Source of the DNA: a phage
Assembly (NCBI GenBank): GCA_016658885.1
Contig: GCA_016658885.1_4807.1
Reading direction: 5' to 3' (one strand)
DNA: 64,000 nucleotides
Below the pieces are notes generated by a model. That model ran no database searches. It had not been told where the DNA came from and saw nothing but the letters and a program-made list of their open reading frames with translations. How positions within the stretch are numbered: position 1 is the stretch's first letter; every line of letters begins with the position of its first letter. Both the position numbers and the translations under genes were made by a program. Below are positions 1 to 7,816 of the stretch, piece after piece.

Positions 1-1
1 T

Positions 2-1930
2 TATCCCGTTTCATTGGCAGGCGTGCTTGAAGTTCAACAAACAGCTGTCACAGGGTCTGCAGGTTGCGTTCAAATTTATACCACATACTTCAACCTTGAG
101 ACTTACAAAAGGTCTTATTACAGCGGCAGCTGGTCGCCTTGGAGAAGGTTGTTTCATAATCGAGATGTAATCCCTGTAGCAAACGGTGGGACAGGGCAAA
201 CTACCATTCAGGGCATGAAGTCCGCTTTTGGATTTGGACCTGTTGCTGATCAAAGCATCGTCCCAACTTCCATGGGCGGCACAGGATCAGCAGACAATGC
301 TCAAGCTTGGCTAAATATTCGTCCACAAGGGTCAACTCCGCTGGCTGGCGACCCTGTGGACGATTACGATGCTGCAACTAAGCGTTGGGTCGAAAACTTA
401 GTTAACACAGGCACCGTTGGCCCAAGCATGAACGGTGTCATGAACTATGGCGTTGGTGATTTTCACTTACGCGACAGTCGTGCATATATTCAACCGTATG
501 AAGTCGTTGCTGATGGGCAGTTATTAAACCGCGCTGACTGGCCTGAACTTTGGTCATATGCGCAGATGCTGTCGCCTATTGCAGATGCTGACTGGCTGGC
601 GGACCCGCAAAAGCGCGGAAGATATTCCTTGGGGAATGGCACCACCACATTCCGAGTGCCAGACCGCAACGGCGTCCAGACAGGGTCAATAAAAGAGCTT
701 TTCTGCAGAGGTGATGGCGGCAACCCGACAAACGATGGAATGGTGTATAATGCTGCTGCGCCTAACATACTTGCCTATACGCCTCACACAGTGCTCACCG
801 CTGCCAGTACAAAAGGCCAAGTGGCCACTGATGGGTCTTTCACATCAACGACATCCACTAGTGGTGTTTGGCCTACGTCCGGTGGCGAAGGTCTGTATGC
901 GAATATCCGTTTCGACGCTTCCCAATCATCTCCATTGTATGGTCGATACGGAATCGTGGACAACCTGATACCAAAGAACTTTATTGGCGTTTGGGTGATT
1001 CGTGCATCTGGTGGATTTGTTGCCGCGAATACGTCTTGGAGTGTCATTAATGCTGACTCCGTTCGCCCAGCTTCTGGAGTCAAGGCATCATCAGGACAGG
1101 TAAAGGCCCAATACAAAATTGGTACTGTTCTTGAAGCAGATGCTGGATTGCGATGTGATGCATACATGGATGGGCTTTATTATGCAATCCTGTCTGTATA
1201 CAATAAAACAAAAGGGGTGACGAAAGACCTTGCTTTTGATGATGCAGGCACCCTGAGTAGCGACCGATACGCAGCAAGATACGGAAGTCTCATGTCTTGG
1301 AATGAGACTGGAACAAGAATCGGTACTTATGCAACGGTGAGGCAGTCAATAGGTCAAAACTATGCATTCAACAGCCTTTTCAGCGGCGGTCAACAAGTAG
1401 ATACAGGGTATGCAACTACTCTTCATCACGGCTTGATTCATAATAATAACGGTAGTTTTGCGCAGGGGACTTGGCTTGTTGTTGGTGATGACAACGCTCA
1501 GTACAAGACAAGGATGAATATACAGCCTAACTCTCATGATGTATTTTTCTCTGTGTCAATTCTTGGATCAGATAGCTTTTACACTCTTCAGAAGAATGCC
1601 ATCTCTGATGAGAATTTAAAGCATGACATACAGCCAGGAACGGTAGAAAAAGCATGGAGCAACCTTTCATCGCTGGAGTATGTAACGTTCATCTACAACA
1701 ATGATGAAAAGGAGAGGGTGAGAAGGGGCATCATCGCTCAAAAGGCAGAGATAATCGACCCGTTGTATGTAAAAACGGTGAAGTTTTATCCAAGTGAAGG
1801 TGTAGAGGTTGAGCAAAAGCAACTCGACACAACGCCTATGCTTTTGGATACGATGCACGTGGTGCAGGAGTTGATGAAGAAGGTCGAGTCACTAGAGGCA
1901 GAGATAGCCGCGCTAAAAGCAGCAAAATAA
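2..1930 (+). CDS. tail fibre / tailspike protein with C-terminal intramolecular chaperone (peptidase S74-like) domain; 5' end runs off the window
   Basis: Reading frame open to window edge (no in-frame stop upstream of the TTG at 14); GGTGQT / MGGTGS motifs; C-terminus SDENLKHDIQP...RRGIIAQKAEIIDPLYV...LEAEIAALKAAK resembles autoproteolytic chaperone domains of phage fibres. Confidence 0.75.
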   Translation, partial: YPVSLAGVLEVQQTAVTGSAGCVQIYTTYFNLETYKRSYYSGSWSPWRRLFHNRDVIPVANGGTGQTTIQGMKSAFGFGPVADQSIVPTSMGGTGSADNAQAWLNIRPQGSTPLAGDPVDDYDAATKRWVENLVNTGTVGPSMNGVMNYGVGDFHLRDSRAYIQPYEVVADGQLLNRADWPELWSYAQMLSPIADADWLADPQKRGRYSLGNGTTTFRVPDRNGVQTGSIKELFCRGDGGNPTNDGMVYNAAAPNILAYTPHTVLTAASTKGQVATDGSFTSTTSTSGVWPTSGGEGLYANIRFDASQSSPLYGRYGIVDNLIPKNFIGVWVIRASGGFVAANTSWSVINADSVRPASGVKASSGQVKAQYKIGTVLEADAGLRCDAYMDGLYYAILSVYNKTKGVTKDLAFDDAGTLSSDRYAARYGSLMSWNETGTRIGTYATVRQSIGQNYAFNSLFSGGQQVDTGYATTLHHGLIHNNNGSFAQGTWLVVGDDNAQYKTRMNIQPNSHDVFFSVSILGSDSFYTLQKNAISDENLKHDIQPGTVEKAWSNLSSLEYVTFIYNNDEKERVRRGIIAQKAEIIDPLYVKTVKFYPSEGVEVEQKQLDTTPMLLDTMHVVQELMKKVESLEAEIAALKAAK

Positions 1931-1939
1931 TTCACTCAA

Positions 1940-1965
1940 GGCGCTGAAAAGCGCCTTTACTTTAT
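1940..1965 (+). terminator. rho-independent terminator after tail fibre gene
   Basis: Hairpin GGCGCTGAAAAGCGCC followed by TTTACTTTAT. Confidence 0.6.
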
Positions 1966-1999
1966 GCGCTATTAAGTTATACTCATTATACGTTAACAA

Positions 2000-2221
2000 G
2001 TGAGGTGTATTATGGAAATTAAATTATTGTCCGATTTCGTAAAAAGTATTGAAGCCAAAGGCATGACGATCAAGGCAAAGAAAGGTGGCATTGTCTGCAT
2101 CGATAAACAACAAAGTGATCAGAGCATATCTCTTGATGATATCAAAACTATGCAAAAGCTCAATAAGAAAGGCGCGTTGCACGAGTTCTTAACTGATATT
2201 GGGGCGGTGGACAATGGATAA
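2000..2221 (+). CDS. hypothetical protein (73 aa)
   Basis: ORF track; ATG start; no motif recognised. Confidence 0.4.
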   Translation: MRCIMEIKLLSDFVKSIEAKGMTIKAKKGGIVCIDKQQSDQSISLDDIKTMQKLNKKGALHEFLTDIGAVDNG

Positions 2222-2312
2222 AGAATCACGACGCTTTGCATTTTGGGGAACGGTATGTATTGGCGCGCTATTTGGAATTGCTTATGCAATTGTTTACGCT
2301 GCAGCGGCATGA
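2214..2312 (+). CDS. possible small membrane protein (32 aa, MDKESRRFAFWGTVCIGALFGIAYAIVYAAAA)
   Basis: Hand-translated ORF below the 60-aa cutoff; GGTGGA 6 nt upstream of ATG; one hydrophobic helix; fills the gap between neighbouring genes. Confidence 0.25.
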   Translation: MDKESRRFAFWGTVCIGALFGIAYAIVYAAAA

Positions 2313-2315
2313 ATC

Positions 2316-2711
2316 ATGATCATCGATATTGAAAAGGCGCTTAAGCGCGAACTGACGCCAGGTGCGACTCCTGGCGAAGAAGCCTATTATCGACCCAAGT
2401 CGCAGCGCAGCAATGATATTCCGGTCGTTAAGCGGACAGTGAACAAGAACGGTCAGCGGTCGCGACCGCGCTCAATCCGGTCCGGTGAAAGGCTGAAAAC
2501 GATTCGCCAGTGTCTACAACGACTCGAAATCATGGGTTGTCGCGCTTATATCGACCCTGATGGAAAGGTCATGGTGAGAATTGGCAATAGTACACAACTA
2601 CAATACGGATTGCCCTGCGGCGAATCCAGACCAATGGCAAAGACCGACCGTGTGGCTACTGGCCGCGAGATTGAGGAAAGTTGGTTGGGTGCTTTCTTAT
2701 TAAAATATTGA
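2316..2711 (+). CDS. hypothetical protein (131 aa)
   Basis: ORF track; no motif recognised. Confidence 0.45.
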   Translation: MIIDIEKALKRELTPGATPGEEAYYRPKSQRSNDIPVVKRTVNKNGQRSRPRSIRSGERLKTIRQCLQRLEIMGCRAYIDPDGKVMVRIGNSTQLQYGLPCGESRPMAKTDRVATGREIEESWLGAFLLKY

Positions 2712-2718
2712 GGTTAAC

Positions 2719-2967
2719 ATGAATAAAAATGAATCAGTAGCATTCTTGCAATGGCTGGAAGGCGTGGTGGAGTATCGCGCGACAAGCGACCGTTTCATCT
2801 TTCAAGGCAAAAGCTTCAAGCGCAAAGGACAAGCCCAGAAAGCAGCGCGTAAGTACTGGAAGGAAGTTTATTCAGAGTTCTTTCAGCAGATGGGCATCAT
2901 TGGCTCGACCGTATCCGGCGACACAGCACAGGTGGTATCGATTGATGAATCCAATCGTTACAATTAA
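2719..2967 (+). CDS. hypothetical protein (82 aa)
   Basis: ORF track; starts 8 nt after previous stop. Confidence 0.45.
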   Translation: MNKNESVAFLQWLEGVVEYRATSDRFIFQGKSFKRKGQAQKAARKYWKEVYSEFFQQMGIIGSTVSGDTAQVVSIDESNRYN

Positions 2968-2982
2968 CAAACCGATTTGAAT

Positions 2983-3004
2983 GCCGCGCCATGCGGCTTT
3001 ATTA
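2983..3004 (+). terminator. rho-independent terminator
   Basis: GCCGC-gccat-GCGGC hairpin followed by TTTATTAT. Confidence 0.5.
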
Positions 3005-3035
3005 TAATTCAAGTTAATCACCCTTATGAAAGGTA

Positions 3036-3431
3036 ATGAAAGGTAATGATATGTCAAATAAGAATGATTCTATTCACAACACATATACTAAAGGCAGCGG
3101 AATGGCCTTTGGTGGCAGAATCAAAATTGACGTTCCAGCCTGCGATTCTGATGGGTTGGAAGTCGGCAACCGAGACTTAACATGGGTTTTACGTCGCCAA
3201 TCTGATTTAGAAGAGAAGCTGGAAAATATTGAGCGTTCTCTCGAAAGTTTGCGCGACCAGCTTTTTGGTTGTCCTGAAGATGATTCAAAACCTGGACCAT
3301 ATGCATCCAATCATGGTTTGATTGATAATATGCTTGCTATTACCGCTCGATCAATTGGTAAAACTGTGTCCATTGAATCATTGATCAGCCAGATTGCGGA
3401 TGGCTTTGGTGATGCCCATAAGAGCGAATAG
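3036..3431 (+). CDS. hypothetical protein (about 126-131 aa; start may be ATG at 3051)
   Basis: ORF track; no motif recognised. Confidence 0.45.
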   Translation: MKGNDMSNKNDSIHNTYTKGSGMAFGGRIKIDVPACDSDGLEVGNRDLTWVLRRQSDLEEKLENIERSLESLRDQLFGCPEDDSKPGPYASNHGLIDNMLAITARSIGKTVSIESLISQIADGFGDAHKSE

Positions 3432-3509
3432 TGGGTGGATGTCGCTTTAACCGTGAATCGTGGGTCGTGGGTCGCTTAGGGCGGCCCTTTCTTTTGCCTG
3501 CCGCGCAGG

Positions 3510-3775
3510 AGTGTACTGCAAATTTCCTGTGGGTACAAAATAGTACGGTACTGTCTAGGACTTTTTCTTTGAAAAGTTAGTGGGCAAATGTGTCGTATTT
3601 TGATTAGTGTACTGCAAATTTCATCAAGTACCAAAACGCACCAAAAGACCCATGCCATAAAAACCACACGAACGCAATAATCAATCGCCGTTACAGTTTC
3701 CAGCGTTACAATTCGAAAGCGAATGATTCGAAGCATAATAATATGAAGCATAATGATTCGAAAGCGAATGATTGC
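3510..3775. repeat. cluster of short direct repeats in a non-coding stretch
   Basis: AGTGTACTGCAAATTTC at 3510 and 3606; ATTCGAAAGCGAATGATT twice near 3711 and 3754; GAAGCATAAT twice near 3730 and 3746. Confidence 0.55.
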
Positions 3776-4090
3776 GTGTAGGATAATATCGGTGGGGATT
3801 ATTCTAGATGCGTGTAATTTCGCATGCGTACTATTTTCGGGCGAAGGGTCGGCATATTTATCGTTTTAGTTCGGAACGAAGGGAAAGTTTTGCGCCTTTA
3901 TAAAACAACGACTTACGCGACCCTCCCTAACGGTCCGATATAGGTGTCTATATAAAACAAGGACTTACGCGATGTTTTCCATTTAACGTAATACCCGTTA
4001 TGCGAACTAAGGCGCATCTCGACGAAGATTATGCGACGACGAAGGGAAGGATAAAGGAGTTTTCGCGGAGAAGCGCATCGAGATAGGGAC

Positions 4091-4116
4091 GAAGAAAAGC
4101 CGCGACTAAGCGCGGC
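4091..4116 (-). terminator. rho-independent terminator downstream of 4137..4427
   Basis: On minus strand GCCGCGCTTAGTCGCGGC hairpin followed by TTTTCTTC. Confidence 0.55.
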
Positions 4117-4136
4117 CTATTAGTAACGGAAGGGTA

Positions 4137-4427
4137 TTATAAGGAGACGATTTTAAAGAAAGAGTAACGGCCTTCGCCTTCGGATAGCGCGAGATATTCG
4201 CCGCCGAACTCCGTAGCAAAATAAACCTTACCTTCGATAGTAACGCGGAAGGTAGTAATATCTTCCTCTTCGAGTTCCGTAAATTCGCTAAAATCGATAG
4301 GACTATGAAGCTCTTCGATAGTTGCATCTACGTTAAAGAGATAAACGTTTTTAAGTTTTTCGCCAAATACGTTAGAGTTTTCGGAAGTTTCGACGCGAGC
4401 GGAACGGATAGCGGCTAAAGTAATCAT
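4137..4427 (-). CDS. small acidic protein (96 aa), island paralogue candidate
   Basis: ORF track; start context CTAGGAGAATATTATG shared with three neighbouring island genes; Asp/Glu-rich. Confidence 0.5.
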   Translation of the reverse strand: MITLAAIRSARVETSENSNVFGEKLKNVYLFNVDATIEELHSPIDFSEFTELEEEDITTFRVTIEGKVYFATEFGGEYLALSEGEGRYSFFKIVSL

Positions 4428-4451
4428 AATATTCTCCTAGTTAGTCGGGAG

Positions 4452-4472
4452 GGTAGCGACCTATTCGCTACC
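4452..4472 (-). promoter_or_regulatory. 5' leader RNA hairpin GGUAGCGA-AUAGG-UCGCUACC
   Basis: Perfect 8-bp stem and 5-nt loop, 24 nt upstream of the ATG at 4427; covarying copy at 5017..5037. Confidence 0.5.
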
Positions 4473-4494
4473 TCATCCCCTCTCGATATAAAAC

Positions 4495-4525
4495 ATTATA
4501 GTCTTAGTGTACGAAGAAGTAAAGC
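4495..4525 (-). promoter_or_regulatory. sigma70-like promoter for 4137..4427
   Basis: Minus-strand CTTTACTTCTTCGTACAC...TATAAT; same element repeated at 4894..4923 and 4965..4993. Confidence 0.45.
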
Positions 4526-4534
4526 ACTTTTTCG

Positions 4535-4837
4535 TTATTCTGCGATAAAATATTTATAAGCTTTATCGCCTTCTACGTCGATATACTCGACGATAATTAA
4601 CGCTTCGCCGCGAGGCGTAACCGTCTCGATAAGGGTAACGGCTTCGTCGTCGGTCTTCGCGAAGCGGATGGCGCTACATTCGGCGTACTTCATATCATCG
4701 AAGGAAAGGCCGATGAAGGCGACCGCGCGGACCTTAATGGCGCTAGATTCTAGTTCCGCGTTAACGGCGGCGATAAGAGAGCGAACGGTTAAGCGGTCTT
4801 CGTCGTAAGTAAGGATGGAAGAGATTAAAGTAGTCAT
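4535..4837 (-). CDS. small acidic protein (100 aa), island paralogue candidate
   Basis: ORF track trimmed to ATG at 4837 preceded by GGGAGCTTTATTATG; acidic composition. Confidence 0.5.
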   Translation of the reverse strand: MTTLISSILTYDEDRLTVRSLIAAVNAELESSAIKVRAVAFIGLSFDDMKYAECSAIRFAKTDDEAVTLIETVTPRGEALIIVEYIDVEGDKAYKYFIAE

Positions 4838-4893
4838 AATAAAGCTCCCGATGCTAGTAGAAGAAAGGGCCATCGCCCGTCTCGATATAAACA

Positions 4894-4923
4894 AGTATAC
4901 GCGAGTGTACGAAGAAGTAAAGA
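4894..4923 (-). promoter_or_regulatory. sigma70-like promoter for 4535..4837
   Basis: Minus-strand CTTTACTTCTTCGTACACTCGCGTATACT, followed by TGTTTATATCGAGACGGG as in the 4495 copy. Confidence 0.4.
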
Positions 4924-4964
4924 AAAAAGATAAAATAATTTATCGCATTTTTATCGAAAAAGTG

Positions 4965-4993
4965 CTTTACTTTTTTCTACACTATATTATAAT
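4965..4993 (+). promoter_or_regulatory. sigma70-like promoter for 5062..5376
   Basis: CTTTAC, 17-bp spacer, TATAAT; near-identical inverted copy of the 4504-4531 element. Confidence 0.45.
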
Positions 4994-5016
4994 GTACTCA
5001 TATCGGGACGGGATGA

Positions 5017-5037
5017 GTTAACGAATAGGTCGTTAAC
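5017..5037 (+). promoter_or_regulatory. 5' leader RNA hairpin GUUAACGA-AUAGG-UCGUUAAC
   Basis: Same loop and inner stem as the 4452..4472 hairpin with compensatory outer-stem changes; 24 nt upstream of the ATG at 5062. Confidence 0.5.
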
Positions 5038-5061
5038 GCCTCTCCCAACTAGGAGTTTATT

Positions 5062-5376
5062 ATGGCTATCGTTACCCGCTTTACCCTCGAAAACGCAACC
5101 GCCGAAGTCCAGGGCGTTACGCTTACTTACGGCGAAATTCTCGCGAAATTCTCCGGCGTTCGCTTAGGCGAAGAAATTAACGACGCGACGGTAATCGAGC
5201 AACTCGCTGCTTCTCGCTTAGAGCGCGACGAAAACGGATTCTTCGAAGTCGATGCGGAATTAAATTTATGCGGTAAAACGGCGTTTATTAACGAGTTCGA
5301 ACTCGCCGTTTTAGTTAATTACGATAGCAAAGCTTACGCCTTCGCCCTCGAATTAATCGAAGACGACGAAGAGTAA
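5062..5376 (+). CDS. small acidic protein (104 aa), island paralogue candidate
   Basis: ORF track; AGGAGTTTATTATG start context; ends IEDDEE. Confidence 0.55.
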   Translation: MAIVTRFTLENATAEVQGVTLTYGEILAKFSGVRLGEEINDATVIEQLAASRLERDENGFFEVDAELNLCGKTAFINEFELAVLVNYDSKAYAFALELIEDDEE

Positions 5377-5456
5377 GAGAGGATTTTTAGAGCGTCGTGC
5401 GCGGCGCTTTAATAAAATTCTTTCGCGCCTAGCGCCCTAACAAATAGGAGTTTATT

Positions 5457-6083
5457 ATGGTTAGCTTAAATCGCTTTTCTACTAGCGGCGACGTTATCGC
5501 AACTAAGACCGCCGACCTCGTTGCATTCTATAATGCAAATTCCGGCTCAAAACCGATTAAGAAGTTTGCGGACCGCCGGACCGCCGAGACTCGCGTAATC
5601 GCGTTAATCGAGTCCTTAAACGCGCTCGATGCGCCGTCCAACGAATCGCCCATCCCCGACGCTAAGCCGCGCGAGGAAGTGTCCAGCGATGTAAAAACGC
5701 ATAAGGCGCGTGCGGTCGTTAAAAAGGCTGAGCCTACCCAGGAAGAACTCGACGCGATGACCGACGAAGAATATGAAGCCTTCGTTAAGAGCGGTTTAAA
5801 CGATAGTGCAAATTGCGTAGTGCAAAATGGAACTCCTTCCCATCGCCGTTCGAATAGCGAAGGTATTGCAAAAAGCTGGGATAATAAGGAAGTGGCGCAA
5901 AAGCGTCTCACCCGTAACGGCGTTATGGTCGAGGGTGTAGGCGAGTTCAAATCGGTCCGCGTAGCGTTCGGCGCGCTGGGATTACCGGATAGCAAGCACA
6001 TTCGCTTCCGCATGAAGCTTAAGGAAGCTGGGCGCTTGAACTTCGAGTTCGGCAACAAGTCCTACACCTTCCAGATTATCTAA
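5457..6083 (+). CDS. hypothetical protein (208 aa)
   Basis: ORF track; identical AGGAGTTTATTATG context; carries two ATAGTGCAAAT-type motifs internally. Confidence 0.5.
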   Translation: MVSLNRFSTSGDVIATKTADLVAFYNANSGSKPIKKFADRRTAETRVIALIESLNALDAPSNESPIPDAKPREEVSSDVKTHKARAVVKKAEPTQEELDAMTDEEYEAFVKSGLNDSANCVVQNGTPSHRRSNSEGIAKSWDNKEVAQKRLTRNGVMVEGVGEFKSVRVAFGALGLPDSKHIRFRMKLKEAGRLNFEFGNKSYTFQII

Positions 6084-6089
6084 TCGAAT

Positions 6090-6113
6090 GGCGGCCCTTC
6101 GGGGTCGCTTTTC
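6090..6113 (+). terminator. rho-independent terminator
   Basis: GCGGCCC-ttcg-GGGTCGC hairpin followed by TTTTC. Confidence 0.55.
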
Positions 6114-6511
6114 ATAGTGCAAATTGGTGGCTTATGAATACTCTCATTCTCATCGCTACGTTGTCCATCGGAAGTGGTCGCACCTTATCCCTTTATGATC
6201 ATAGTGCAAATTGCGCTTACCCAACGCGCGTTGCGGCAATAGTTAATAGTGCAAATCGAATGCTATTCGAGACTTGTTGGCGGGTCGATAACGAGAAAGG
6301 TCGGGTAGTCTTAGGTTATAGTGCAAATCTGCTGGTGGAGTCGTTCGATTGGACGGTTGAAGGTCGTAAATTGTTACGGAAAGTGACTAAAAGATGACTT
6401 ATAATAATACACTTTCTAACGCGTTTATGGTTGTAACCTTCCCCATCGTATTACCGATGGCCCTAGAAGTGGAGAAAATGTGTTCTAGGGCCGTTTTATA
6501 GTGCAAATTGG

Positions 6512-6985
6512 CTAGTGGCGGGAGAATTGCTCACCTTCTTTGGCCGCCTCTCCAAAATCCTTGTAGAAATCGTCCATAGAACGGCCCATTTTACTATTGC
6601 CGTTTTCATCAATCATCGTGATGCCGTAGATGATATTCAGTTCACGAATAGCATTAAGCTTGGCTGATGCCGCGACTTCTGGATCACGCACAAGCTTGAC
6701 CAAATTGTGAATTGCACCTTTTACGCTCCATAAATCCTTGAGTGGCATTTCTTCCATACGCTTTTTGAAGCGCATTTTGTAGTACGGATTGCGTTGTGCG
6801 CAAAGGATTCGCTGGCCAGTGTAGTTATCCGTTGCAACTTCCATTCCAAATACTAGTGCAAAAGCTGCGCGCATGTCATGGCCCTGAATAACAAGGTCAA
6901 TGAACTCATCGAATAAAGCCTGATTGTGCTCTGCAAATCGCGGGTCTTCAAAGTCTTCAGGCATCGCTACATAATCTTGACTCAT
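6512..6985 (-). CDS. hypothetical protein (about 157 aa)
   Basis: ORF track trimmed to the MSQDY start; no motif recognised. Confidence 0.45.
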   Translation of the reverse strand: MSQDYVAMPEDFEDPRFAEHNQALFDEFIDLVIQGHDMRAAFALVFGMEVATDNYTGQRILCAQRNPYYKMRFKKRMEEMPLKDLWSVKGAIHNLVKLVRDPEVAASAKLNAIRELNIIYGITMIDENGNSKMGRSMDDFYKDFGEAAKEGEQFSRH

Positions 6986-7221
6986 AGTGCAAAATCCCAT
7001 AGTGCAAATTAATAGTGTGAATTATACAATGGATGGACATTATATTCAAGTGCAGATTGATGTTCATTATGGCTATAAACGTACACAAATCATAGTGCTG
7101 AATGGATAACGGACCGTGGTGCGTGGTGTACTGTTTGATACGAATAAAAGAAATCCATCCCTTTCGCCGCTTGCTATGCAAATCAAAGACTTAGCCGCTG
7201 CTGGCTGGTTGAAGCGTATCA

Positions 7222-7590
7222 TGACGTATCATCCGTATTGCCGCAAGTCTTTGTTTTTACTTATATATTACGGATGATACGTTAAATATATAAATTAACA
7301 TAAGTATGAGGATGTAGAAAAAAATTAATTTAAATTAATTCAAAATGGAGTTAATTAATTTTTCAAATTATATATATAACGATGCCCAGTTTTATCCGTA
7401 TCATCCGTAAGATTAATGTACAAGCCAGGCGCGGCAAGGGCTGTACACTGATACGGATAAAAAACCATGACGTATCATGACGTAAGGGTGTACCAATTTG
7501 GAAAGGATGAATCCAGGAACGGCGCGGCCTGTAGCCATGATACGCTTAATTTTTAACCGTATTTTAAGCGTATCAAATGTGTTCAAACAC
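7222..7590. repeat. iteron-like repeat region with AT-rich core (origin-like), copy 1
   Basis: Direct and inverted copies of ACGGATGATACG / CGTATCATCCGTA flanking an AT-rich block at 7310-7380; similar to 60190..60462. Confidence 0.6.
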
Positions 7591-7816
7591 CACGTTTCAC
7601 GACACTAAAATTTCAATCCATAGATATAATCTAACAAACATCACGGACCAATAGACACGACCTATGAAATATATTTCTAAATATTTCCGCACAATCAATA
7701 AATAAAACACAACCTCATAATCATTCCATCGCAAAACACGACCCAAACAACAAAAGGCCGCATAAAGCGACCAATTGCACACATTCCATTCTTCAAAACA
7801 CACAAATCAATGTTCT

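Follow-up and report, generated by a model that had tools for sequence, protein, structure and literature searches.

What maintains a stretch of aberrant composition beside the physical end of a phage genome, and what might the genes within it do? The question is raised by positions 3800-6113 of a 64,000-nucleotide stretch of phage DNA (GenBank assembly GCA_016658885.1, contig GCA_016658885.1_4807.1), which we refer to as the window and to which coordinates refer unless another sequence is named. A first-pass annotation, made from the letters of the sequence, had described here an island of four genes, g1 to g4, with CpG-rich codons and a repeated promoter cassette, three of the products being small acidic proteins with a profile thought typical of DNA-mimic anti-restriction proteins. 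We report that the primary signal in this island is a depletion of the dinucleotides CA and TG, that this purge is under continuing selection, and that the island lies within the terminal repeat of a phage of the genus Wifcevirus, where it probably represents an immediate-early module.

The island is indeed discrete and compositionally distinct. In 500-nt windows covering 3751-5750, the observed/expected (o/e) ratio for CpG was 2.0-2.23, compared with a window mean of 1.13 (standard deviation 0.26), and the eight highest values in the whole 64 kb all fell within the island. The dinucleotide-signature distance, delta*, between the island and the rest was 0.236, whereas 109 windows of the same size had a median of 0.041 and a maximum of 0.131. 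The G+C content of the island was ordinary (0.43-0.53). The primary signal is the depletion of CA/TG, for which rho* was 0.28-0.37 in the island and 1.17-1.18 in the rest, a drop of about four-fold; in the core of the island (3900-5500) the values were 0.12-0.3. Two dinucleotides were raised, i.e., CG (2.0) and TA (1.18, compared with 0.67 elsewhere). Both are products of one transition away from CA or TG, and their excess is a by-product, left after synonymous transitions.

The codons that had been described as CpG-rich (TCG, ACG and GCG) are not the source of the signal. In g1, g2 and g3, TCG was used for none of the 18 serines, ACG and GCG were barely raised, and 84 of the 113 CpGs (74%) were at codon junctions. 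The third base before a codon starting with G was C in 84 cases and T in 6, while before a codon starting with A it was T in 45 cases and C in 5. Codon use and the position of the CpGs thus show the CpG-rich codons of the first-pass annotation to be a by-product that was read out of frame. The codons NCA, CTG, TTG and GTG were not used at all in the same three genes (0%, compared with 21-30% in background open reading frames, ORFs). The total of CA plus TG was 6, 9 and 8 in g1, g2 and g3, respectively, where the unavoidable minima are 2, 3 and 4 and the background density predicts around 40 per gene. The purge extends to the amino acid sequence: histidine, glutamine, cysteine, tryptophan and methionine, the codons for which must contain CA or TG, made up 2-4% of g1-g3 and 2-5% of the island proteins, compared with 10.8% of residues (standard deviation 2.5, minimum 5.8%) in other ORFs.

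Several features show the level at which this constraint operates. CA and TG were equally depleted within each single gene, on either strand, and the depletion also affected leaders, spacers, untranslated regions (UTRs) and the untranslated segment 3800-4096. It was independent of reading frame and strand-symmetric. All eight CA-containing trinucleotide contexts were depleted, and a longer motif behind the purge was rejected on these grounds. Given the equal loss of CA and TG in each gene, the depleted UTRs and spacers, and the involvement of all contexts, the constraint is therefore on nucleic acid and not on codons, and is explained most simply if double-stranded DNA is what it acts on. The CA and TG dinucleotides that remain are concentrated in functional elements, e.g., start codons and promoter cores. 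Beyond the dinucleotide effect, the only tetranucleotide signal was for GATC, which is absent from the island (3750-5700), where around three copies would be expected at the density in the rest of the genome.

The position of the island was established by comparison with related phages. A megablast search with the region placed the window in Wifcevirus, whose members are myoviruses of E. coli and Shigella with genomes of ~68 kb and are distant relatives of the Pseudomonas PB1-like phages; the closest records were Bas98 HermannAdler and WFH, with 97-98% identity over 3700-6200. According to annotation or publication, the direct terminal repeat (DTR) is 3,673 bp in phage Mansfield (predicted by PhageTerm) and ~3.7 kb in WFH and WFC. 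Both the deposited right end of WFH and the end of the PhageTerm DTR of Mansfield (record position 3673) aligned at window position 3644, and position 1 of both records aligned at 7346. The window therefore carries one collapsed copy of the DTR (3644-7346; 3,703 bp). Position 3644 is the physical genome terminus on the island side, and 7346 is the terminus beside the small-terminase gene, terS (6512-7000, minus strand), which is at the opposite end of the repeat from the island. Like a pre-early or host-takeover module, the island (~3750-5700; originally noted as 3800-6113) is located inside the DTR. It starts ~100-150 bp from the physical genome terminus, with its sharp edge adjoining the repeat boundary at 3644. 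The DNA that the first-pass annotation took for an accessory region between tail-fibre and early genes is thus not merely accessory.

The island was found in all 29 Wifcevirus records that matched, and all Wifcevirus versions of the locus were purged, including those with alternative genes. Islands with the same signature were present at the same repeat edge in the Serratia phages MyoSmar and KKP 3709 (Myosmarvirus) and in the Pantoea phage Kyle (Kylevirus). In the four islands, rho* for CA/TG was 0.25-0.39, compared with 1.06-1.20 in their own genomes, while CG was 1.8-2.1 and TA 1.1-1.3; GATC was also absent or nearly absent in the islands of Kyle and KKP 3709. The Serratia and Pantoea islands are headed by the same promoter family, and the Serratia islands encode small acidic proteins with no sequence relation to g1-g3. 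In MyoSmar, the DTR, defined independently by PhageTerm, is at 1-3559 and the purge at ~150-1900, so that the purge again abuts the physical terminus, away from the terS-like gene. Among the Serratia g4 paralogues, the copy within the island was purged (3.0% histidine, glutamine, cysteine, tryptophan and methionine) but the copy outside was not (7.5%), and the constraint therefore follows position, not protein family.

The purge is actively maintained and ongoing. Alleles of g1 that have diverged by 30% at the nucleotide level contained 6 and 8 CA plus TG, whereas 26 (standard deviation 4) would be expected under random substitution, and the observed count was reached in none of 2000 simulations. 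g2, the island as a whole and a pair of Serratia phages gave the same result. The idea that such a purge might be a general trait of early or leading regions was rejected. There was none in the first 14 kb of T5, terminal repeat included (minimum 0.66 in 600-nt windows), or in the whole of T7 (minimum 0.76), and no window had a CA/TG value below 0.6 in ~61.5 of the 66 kb of the Pbunavirus JG024. The surroundings of the g4 homologues in one Salmonella and one Aeromonas phage were also unpurged (minima of at least 0.60). When viral contigs were scanned for the promoter pattern described below, the only depleted loci were of the Wifcevirus, Myosmarvirus and Kylevirus types, the other 34 loci being chance matches that were not depleted, with minima of at least 0.60. 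A literature search yielded no case of a single dinucleotide being locally purged, and actively kept so, strongly enough to reshape amino acid content. The CA/TG purge is the novel element here, and the constraint in this and the two related genera looks new.

The genes in the island have their own repeated promoter cassette, as previously proposed. A scan located P1 (4523-4495, minus strand; TTTACT-17-TATAAT), P2 (4921-4894, minus strand; TTTACT-16-TATACT) and P3 (4966-4993, plus strand; TTTACT-16-TATAAT), the last being divergent from P2. The consensus CTTTACT-N14-20-TATAMT had four matches in 64 kb, compared with 0.04 expected, and three of them are in the island; by this consensus, P1-P3 are sigma-70-type promoters. 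P1 and P3 belong to a longer unit present in two inverted copies, with 88% identity over 33 nt of promoter and 78% over the 65-nt leader and ribosome-binding site, while P1 and P2 have one identical 19-mer in common. P1 and its 5' leader (4428-4523, minus strand) contain a hairpin, GGUAGCGA-AUAGG-UCGCUACC, and the ribosome-binding site CTAGGAGAATATTATG; P3 and its leader (4966-5061, plus strand) contain the hairpin GUUAACGA-AUAGG-UCGUUAAC and the ribosome-binding site CTAGGAGTTTATTATG. The apex of this hairpin (CGA-AUAGG-UCG) is invariant, whereas the lower stem varies yet stays paired (GGUAG/CUACC, GUUAA/UUAAC and GGG/CCC, the third version being in Serratia phages). P2 and its leader (4838-4921, minus strand) carry the ribosome-binding site GGGAGCTTTATTATG. 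The start context TAGGAG(A/T)(A/T)TATTATG, which had been ascribed to all four genes, is found at g1, g3 and g4, but g2 has GGGAGCTTTATTATG instead. The small genes are thus preceded by what are, by consensus, host-type promoters of their own, and by strong ribosome-binding sites. A fourth match to the consensus (CTTTACTT...TATACT) was observed at 1955-1983 (plus strand), outside the repeat and upstream of a 73-residue ORF (2000-2221).

The transcription units are delimited by putative terminators. Downstream of g1 the scan identified an intrinsic terminator (4097-4118, minus strand), and one is annotated at the same place in Mansfield and WFH. The spacer between g3 and g4 (5377-5456, plus strand) has a strong hairpin and a U-rich run, followed by the ribosome-binding site ATAGGAGTTTATTATG; its predicted fold has an energy of -32.1 kcal/mol (z -3.6), and none of 200 shuffled sequences was as stable. 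A terminator hairpin (GCGGCCC-TTCG-GGGTCGC, then TTTTC) follows g4 at 6088-6113 on the plus strand, and the homologous place in WFH is annotated as a terminator. Beyond the g1 terminator, the untranslated spacer 3800-4096 is likewise poor in CA/TG (o/e 0.41); a 25-nt sequence repeated directly within it (3896-3920 and 3948-3972) may represent decayed copies of the leader. A search of 3300-7600 against Rfam gave no match to a non-coding RNA at E<=1.

The three acidic products of ~100 residues were as described: g1 (4137-4427, minus strand) encodes 96 residues with a computed isoelectric point (pI) of 4.40 and a net charge of -10, g2 (4535-4837, minus strand) 100 residues (pI 4.44, charge -8), and g3 (5062-5376, plus strand) 104 residues (pI 4.07, charge -15). 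The ATG of g2, at 4837, agrees with the annotation in relatives. The similarity that had been suggested among them was not borne out, with BLASTP giving no match or E values of 0.37-5 and hhalign a probability below 3%. The sole link of paralogy that we found was between g1 and Mansfield gp005 (E 2e-8), which occupies the slot of g3 in Mansfield-type phages. That slot is swappable, with g3 itself in only 11 of the phage records and a g1 paralogue or nothing in the others; it is empty in ECML-117 and RCIP0319. Among the small genes, conservation is highest in g2 (80-97% identity across the genus). The centre of g1 (residues 39-60) is hypervariable, and the two allele classes of this gene (~62% identity) differ mainly there. 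Some phages have an additional basic 69-residue gene after g1, which is annotated as a transcriptional regulator in RefSeq NC_025441 and NC_048073 and in F13. The stretches concerned in this modular locus are 4137-4427 in the window, and 2944-3153 and 3863-4147 in the loci of two relatives (L003 and L001, respectively).

Searches with g1-g3 against Pfam, PHROGs, NCBIfam and the sequences in the PDB gave no match below E 0.01, and PADLOC gave nothing. In a search of 5.8 billion proteins, the only matches were to Wifcevirus-type contigs or short fragments, and all three genes are restricted to Wifcevirus genomes or contigs of the same type. By analogy with the small early proteins of other phages, g1-g3 are likely to be inhibitors of host functions or defences, and an early or counter-defence role for the island is plausible.

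The description of the island as a unit of four genes holds for g1-g3, which are strongly depleted, but in part only for g4 (5457-6083, plus strand), an old core gene that is half depleted (o/e 0.61). Depletion fades from the 5' to the 3' end of g4, with 8, 11, 14 and 15 CA/TG in successive quarters. The idea that this gradient reflects a chimera of island and non-island paralogues was discarded, because both halves were equally similar to both Serratia paralogues. The g4 product is a basic protein of 208 residues (pI 9.1), which matched the profile of PHROG 4730, a family whose function is not described, over its full length (residues 4-208, E 6e-88). Its relatives formed 826 representative clusters at E<=0.001, and homologues occur in Pbunavirus, Myosmarvirus (Serratia), Kylevirus (Pantoea), Xanthomonas and other phages. 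On this distribution, g4 is a core, vertically inherited gene of PB1-like phages and not specific to the island. Structure models were made for g1 and g4. The g4 model (pLDDT score 86) has two domains, with a weak resemblance to SAP/Rho-N helical folds in the N-terminal part and to a winged helix in the C-terminal part, both of them kinds of fold that bind nucleic acid, although no match was significant; judging from the model, g4 probably binds nucleic acid.

Our preferred explanation, to which we assign a probability of roughly 0.6, is that the island is the immediate-early (pre-early or host-takeover) module of Wifcevirus, placed on early-entering DNA and subject to DNA-level selection against CA/TG. 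We read it as immediate-early because its anatomy matches that of the terminal-repeat modules of T5 and SPO1 and of the A1-A3/ocr region of T7. Since the island is inside the 3.7-kb DTR, one copy is always within the first 3.7 kb to enter the cell. Packaging as a rule starts near the small-terminase gene and, if the end opposite that gene is packaged last and ejected first, the island would be within the first 2.4 kb. Transcription by the sigma-70 RNA polymerase of the host would begin immediately, at three copies of a single conserved cassette. In this cassette, GTGCTTTACT follows a tract rich in A and lies 16-17 nt ahead of TATAAT; next come a conserved initial transcribed sequence, a stem-loop in the 5' leader and a strong ribosome-binding site. 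The genes expressed would be those for three small acidic proteins that evolve fast, i.e., putative inhibitors of host proteins or defences, together with the conserved basic protein g4. In the DNA of the early units, every CpA/TpG step on either strand would be strongly and continually selected against, each CA or TG being a liability for the template as infection begins. So strong a purge implies that every CA or TG carries a cost and, therefore, that an agent with a recognition unit of ~2 nt acts on the early template. Such an agent, with very short specificity and acting on double-stranded DNA, could be a host factor common to Enterobacterales or a DNA-directed host-shutoff activity of the phage itself.

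A more specific form of this explanation, which we put forward as a tentative speculation, is that the island is stealth DNA. A factor requiring CA/TG would attack or silence ordinary DNA, leaving the CA/TG-free early genes as the only template still working. The factor could be a host-shutoff or nuclease activity of the phage, perhaps involving g4, or a previously unrecognised host activity directed against incoming DNA. If this were true, it would represent discrimination between self and non-self by dinucleotide content, without modification of bases. If the weapon were the phage's own, the rest of its genome would have to escape through timing or some second mechanism.

The resemblance to known systems is one of layout. 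The first-step-transfer region of T5, within a 10.2-kb terminal repeat, resembles the island in its location in the DTR, its host-type promoters on both strands and its small host-takeover genes. The T5 region enters the cell first, as we infer for the island, although two-step DNA entry is a feature of T5 and the likeness of Wifcevirus is in the arrangement of its sequence. In T5, according to its annotation, a repeat-rich injection stop signal follows inside the repeat, where in the window ten copies of ATAGTGCAAAT follow the island. Unlike T5, the module occupies ~2 kb rather than ~9 kb, it has no gene in common with the T5 region, and the first 14 kb of T5 is unpurged. The early region of T7 (A1-A3 and gene 0.3, encoding Ocr) also has three strong host promoters close to the genome end, and its first product is annotated as an acidic protein of ~117 residues that disarms a host defence. 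However, no similarity of sequence or fold to T7 was found, the promoters of the island are partly divergent, and T7 too is unpurged. The host-takeover module of the Bacillus phage SPO1 consists of very small genes, found only in the terminal redundancy, whose early promoters and ribosome-binding sites are strong; it is like the island in layout, but differs in host and genes, and we know of no report of a dinucleotide purge in it. Conceptual analogues are the sensing of CpG by vertebrate ZAP and the action of T4 Alc or EndoIV on unmodified cytosine DNA. In these, as in the island, a very short sequence feature marks the template that is spared or attacked, and shapes codon usage, although in Wifcevirus only ~2 kb of a 68-kb genome is affected. 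To our knowledge, no factor that reads a dinucleotide in this way has been described for CA/TG in bacteria or phages. Murciavirus (Autographiviridae) shares with the island selection on the sequence content of the first-injected DNA, but it loses a single type I motif, whereas the island has purged a whole dinucleotide, amino acid usage included (PMC12455610).

The part of the DTR that borders the island has features of its own. A ten-copy array of (T)CATAGTGCAAAT(T)G, with all copies on the plus strand, occupies 5801-7105. It begins exactly where CA/TG depletion fades, and it ends beside an AT-rich segment (7000-7800, G+C 0.33-0.37). Six to eight copies of the array motif are present in every Wifcevirus locus spanning that part of the repeat, Kyle has copies of TAGTGCRAA at the equivalent place (6511-7431 of its locus), and the core AGTGC is common to the array and the island promoters. 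The array could represent replication iterons, a packaging signal or an injection stop signal; we speculate that the ATAGTGCAAAT copies are a candidate for a T5-like stop or pause in injection, which could be combined with the stealth explanation. An 87-residue ORF at 6134-6397 (plus strand), annotated in relatives, includes four copies of the array motif, and these encode the Ser-Ala-Asn tripeptides that recur in its product. No family was matched by this ORF, which may be not a gene but an artefact of the repeats.

Chi sites (GCTGGTGG) occur in the half of the DTR outside the island, with nine in 1.7 kb in Kyle (6027-7744), four in 340 bp in MyoSmar (2107-2447), two in KKP 3709 (11623 and 11972 of its locus) and one in the window (6331-6338). 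All are on the strand that RecBCD reads from the terminus proximal to the small-terminase gene, and none face the island tip.

The two edges of the repeat also carry repeats specific to each of them. Between the boundary and the island is a terminal segment with normal CA/TG (3644-3799, o/e 1.03), which has a C/A-rich end and, at 3702-3789, 15-nt-period repeats containing AATGATTCG; the equivalent edge in Kyle (4415-4566 of its locus) has TAATCATTCG repeat units. At the other edge (7224-7462), several perfect inverted repeats of 13-14 nt (ACGTATCATCCGTA / TACGGATGATACGT) straddle 7346. The edge-specific repeats at both ends of the DTR are likely to be regions that terminase recognises or cuts. 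A variant of the array motif, GTACTGCAAATTTC, was observed twice just outside the repeat edge (3511-3531 and 3610-3627, plus strand), downstream of the terminator of the tail-fibre operon (3469-3487). In many public assemblies g2 or g3 is on a separate contig of 3-4 kb, the pattern expected if a terminal repeat with doubled coverage assembles apart.

Several points weigh against the island being an immediate-early module with DNA-level selection. Its early timing is deduced from promoter consensus and from analogy. The orientation of the Chi sites may mean that the terS end is the one exposed to RecBCD, and possibly the one that leads, in which case the island would be 1.3-3.6 kb in; being inside the repeat, it would still enter early, though not at the tip. 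Family searches, searches of PDB sequences and the search of 5.8 billion proteins left g1-g3 with no assigned function, and we know of no candidate agent with specificity for CA/TG. The rest of the genome is unpurged, so that a weapon encoded by the phage would need a second way of sparing it. Finally, the purged zone matches the transcription units about as well as it matches distance from the terminus, which leaves some room for a cause at the level of RNA.

Among the rival explanations, the one that fares best, although we regard it as unlikely, is that the acidic proteins block restriction enzymes by mimicking DNA, and that the composition reflects avoidance of restriction sites in the DNA that enters first, as with Ocr in T7 and first-step transfer in T5. 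The acidity of the proteins and the location of the island in the terminal repeat would both suit this, as would the absence of GATC. Wifcevirus phages were insensitive to all defences tested, restriction included, except EcoP1_I; of the restriction systems, they withstood those of types I and II and one of the two of type III, no mechanism that would protect them is known, and unusually fast replication was also reported (PMC11990801). This resistance fits g1-g3 being inhibitors, but is not proof of DNA mimicry. In Murciavirus, the motif content of the leading injected region decides sensitivity to type I restriction (PMC12455610). The island also has the lowest repertoire of type II sites of any window of its size, with 282 distinct sites (of 617), compared with 347 elsewhere (standard deviation 13.5, minimum 302).

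For the mimicry part of this proposal, made in the first-pass annotation, there was no positive support. Sequence searches, and fold comparison with the structure models made of g1 and g4, brought up no link to Ocr, to ArdA or to another solved DNA mimic; the g1 model is beta-rich, and g1-g3 matched no described mimic family below E 0.01. Their strong net negative charge is a property that a mimic must have, but is far from specific. Generic avoidance of restriction sites was quantified and rejected as too weak: the repertoire is down by only 19%, the 282 type II sites are still there, and one EcoKI site has been kept. Enzymes that recognise 6-7 bases would mostly have no sites in 2 kb anyway, and the gain seems too small to account for a purge of five amino acids.

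We consider it rather improbable that selection acts on RNA, with early mRNAs avoiding CA and UG so as to escape ribonucleases or toxins, to suppress internal AUG, GUG or UUG starts, or to tune folding and decay. The approximate coincidence of the purged zone with the early transcription units (+/- 150-300 nt) would be accounted for in this way, and every bacterial start codon contains UG. However, the sense strand of every gene has lost CA and UG to the same extent and irrespective of frame, depletion continues past the terminators into the untranslated 3800-4096, and UA, which is usually avoided in mRNA, is enriched. Known endoribonuclease toxins would explain the loss of one motif, e.g., ACA, but not of two complementary dinucleotides.

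Even less probable, in our estimation, is a local mutational bias, due either to a mode of repair or replication at the end of the repeat or to transcription-associated damage, that turns CA/TG into CG/TA. That CG and TA are the products of single transitions, and that one edge of the zone coincides with the edge of the repeat, would be consistent with such a bias, but it would have to cause both C>T and A>G changes specifically at CpA. Moreover, packaging duplicates the entire repeat, yet the effect is confined to one half of it, and the substitutions between g1 alleles (38 transitions and 49 transversions) are not dominated by transitions. The clustering of the residual CA/TG in start codons and promoter cores is what would be expected under selection.

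We give almost no credence to the island being a horizontally acquired element (moron) that keeps the dinucleotide signature of its donor: while its composition is atypical with a sharp edge, and g1-g3 have no homologues outside the genus, the signature is undecayed over 30% nucleotide divergence, the same repeat edge and promoter family are found in three genera, the purge covers part of the core gene g4 and one of the two Serratia g4 paralogues, the island carries no mobility genes, searches brought up neither a donor nor a homologue elsewhere, and we know of no genome with a CA/TG rho* near 0.3. With its composition held against drift and conserved in three genera, a foreign origin of the island is largely refuted.

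If the island is an immediate-early module under DNA-level selection, the purge implies that an agent reads DNA at 2-nt resolution in the first moments of infection. The module is compact (~2 kb, with three promoters and four genes), and phages that carry it now grow on engineered K-12. Its three near-identical cassettes, each comprising a predicted strong promoter, a leader and a ribosome-binding site, together with the small proteins that they precede, provide candidate anti-defence or host-takeover factors, and the small proteins probably target functions of the host.

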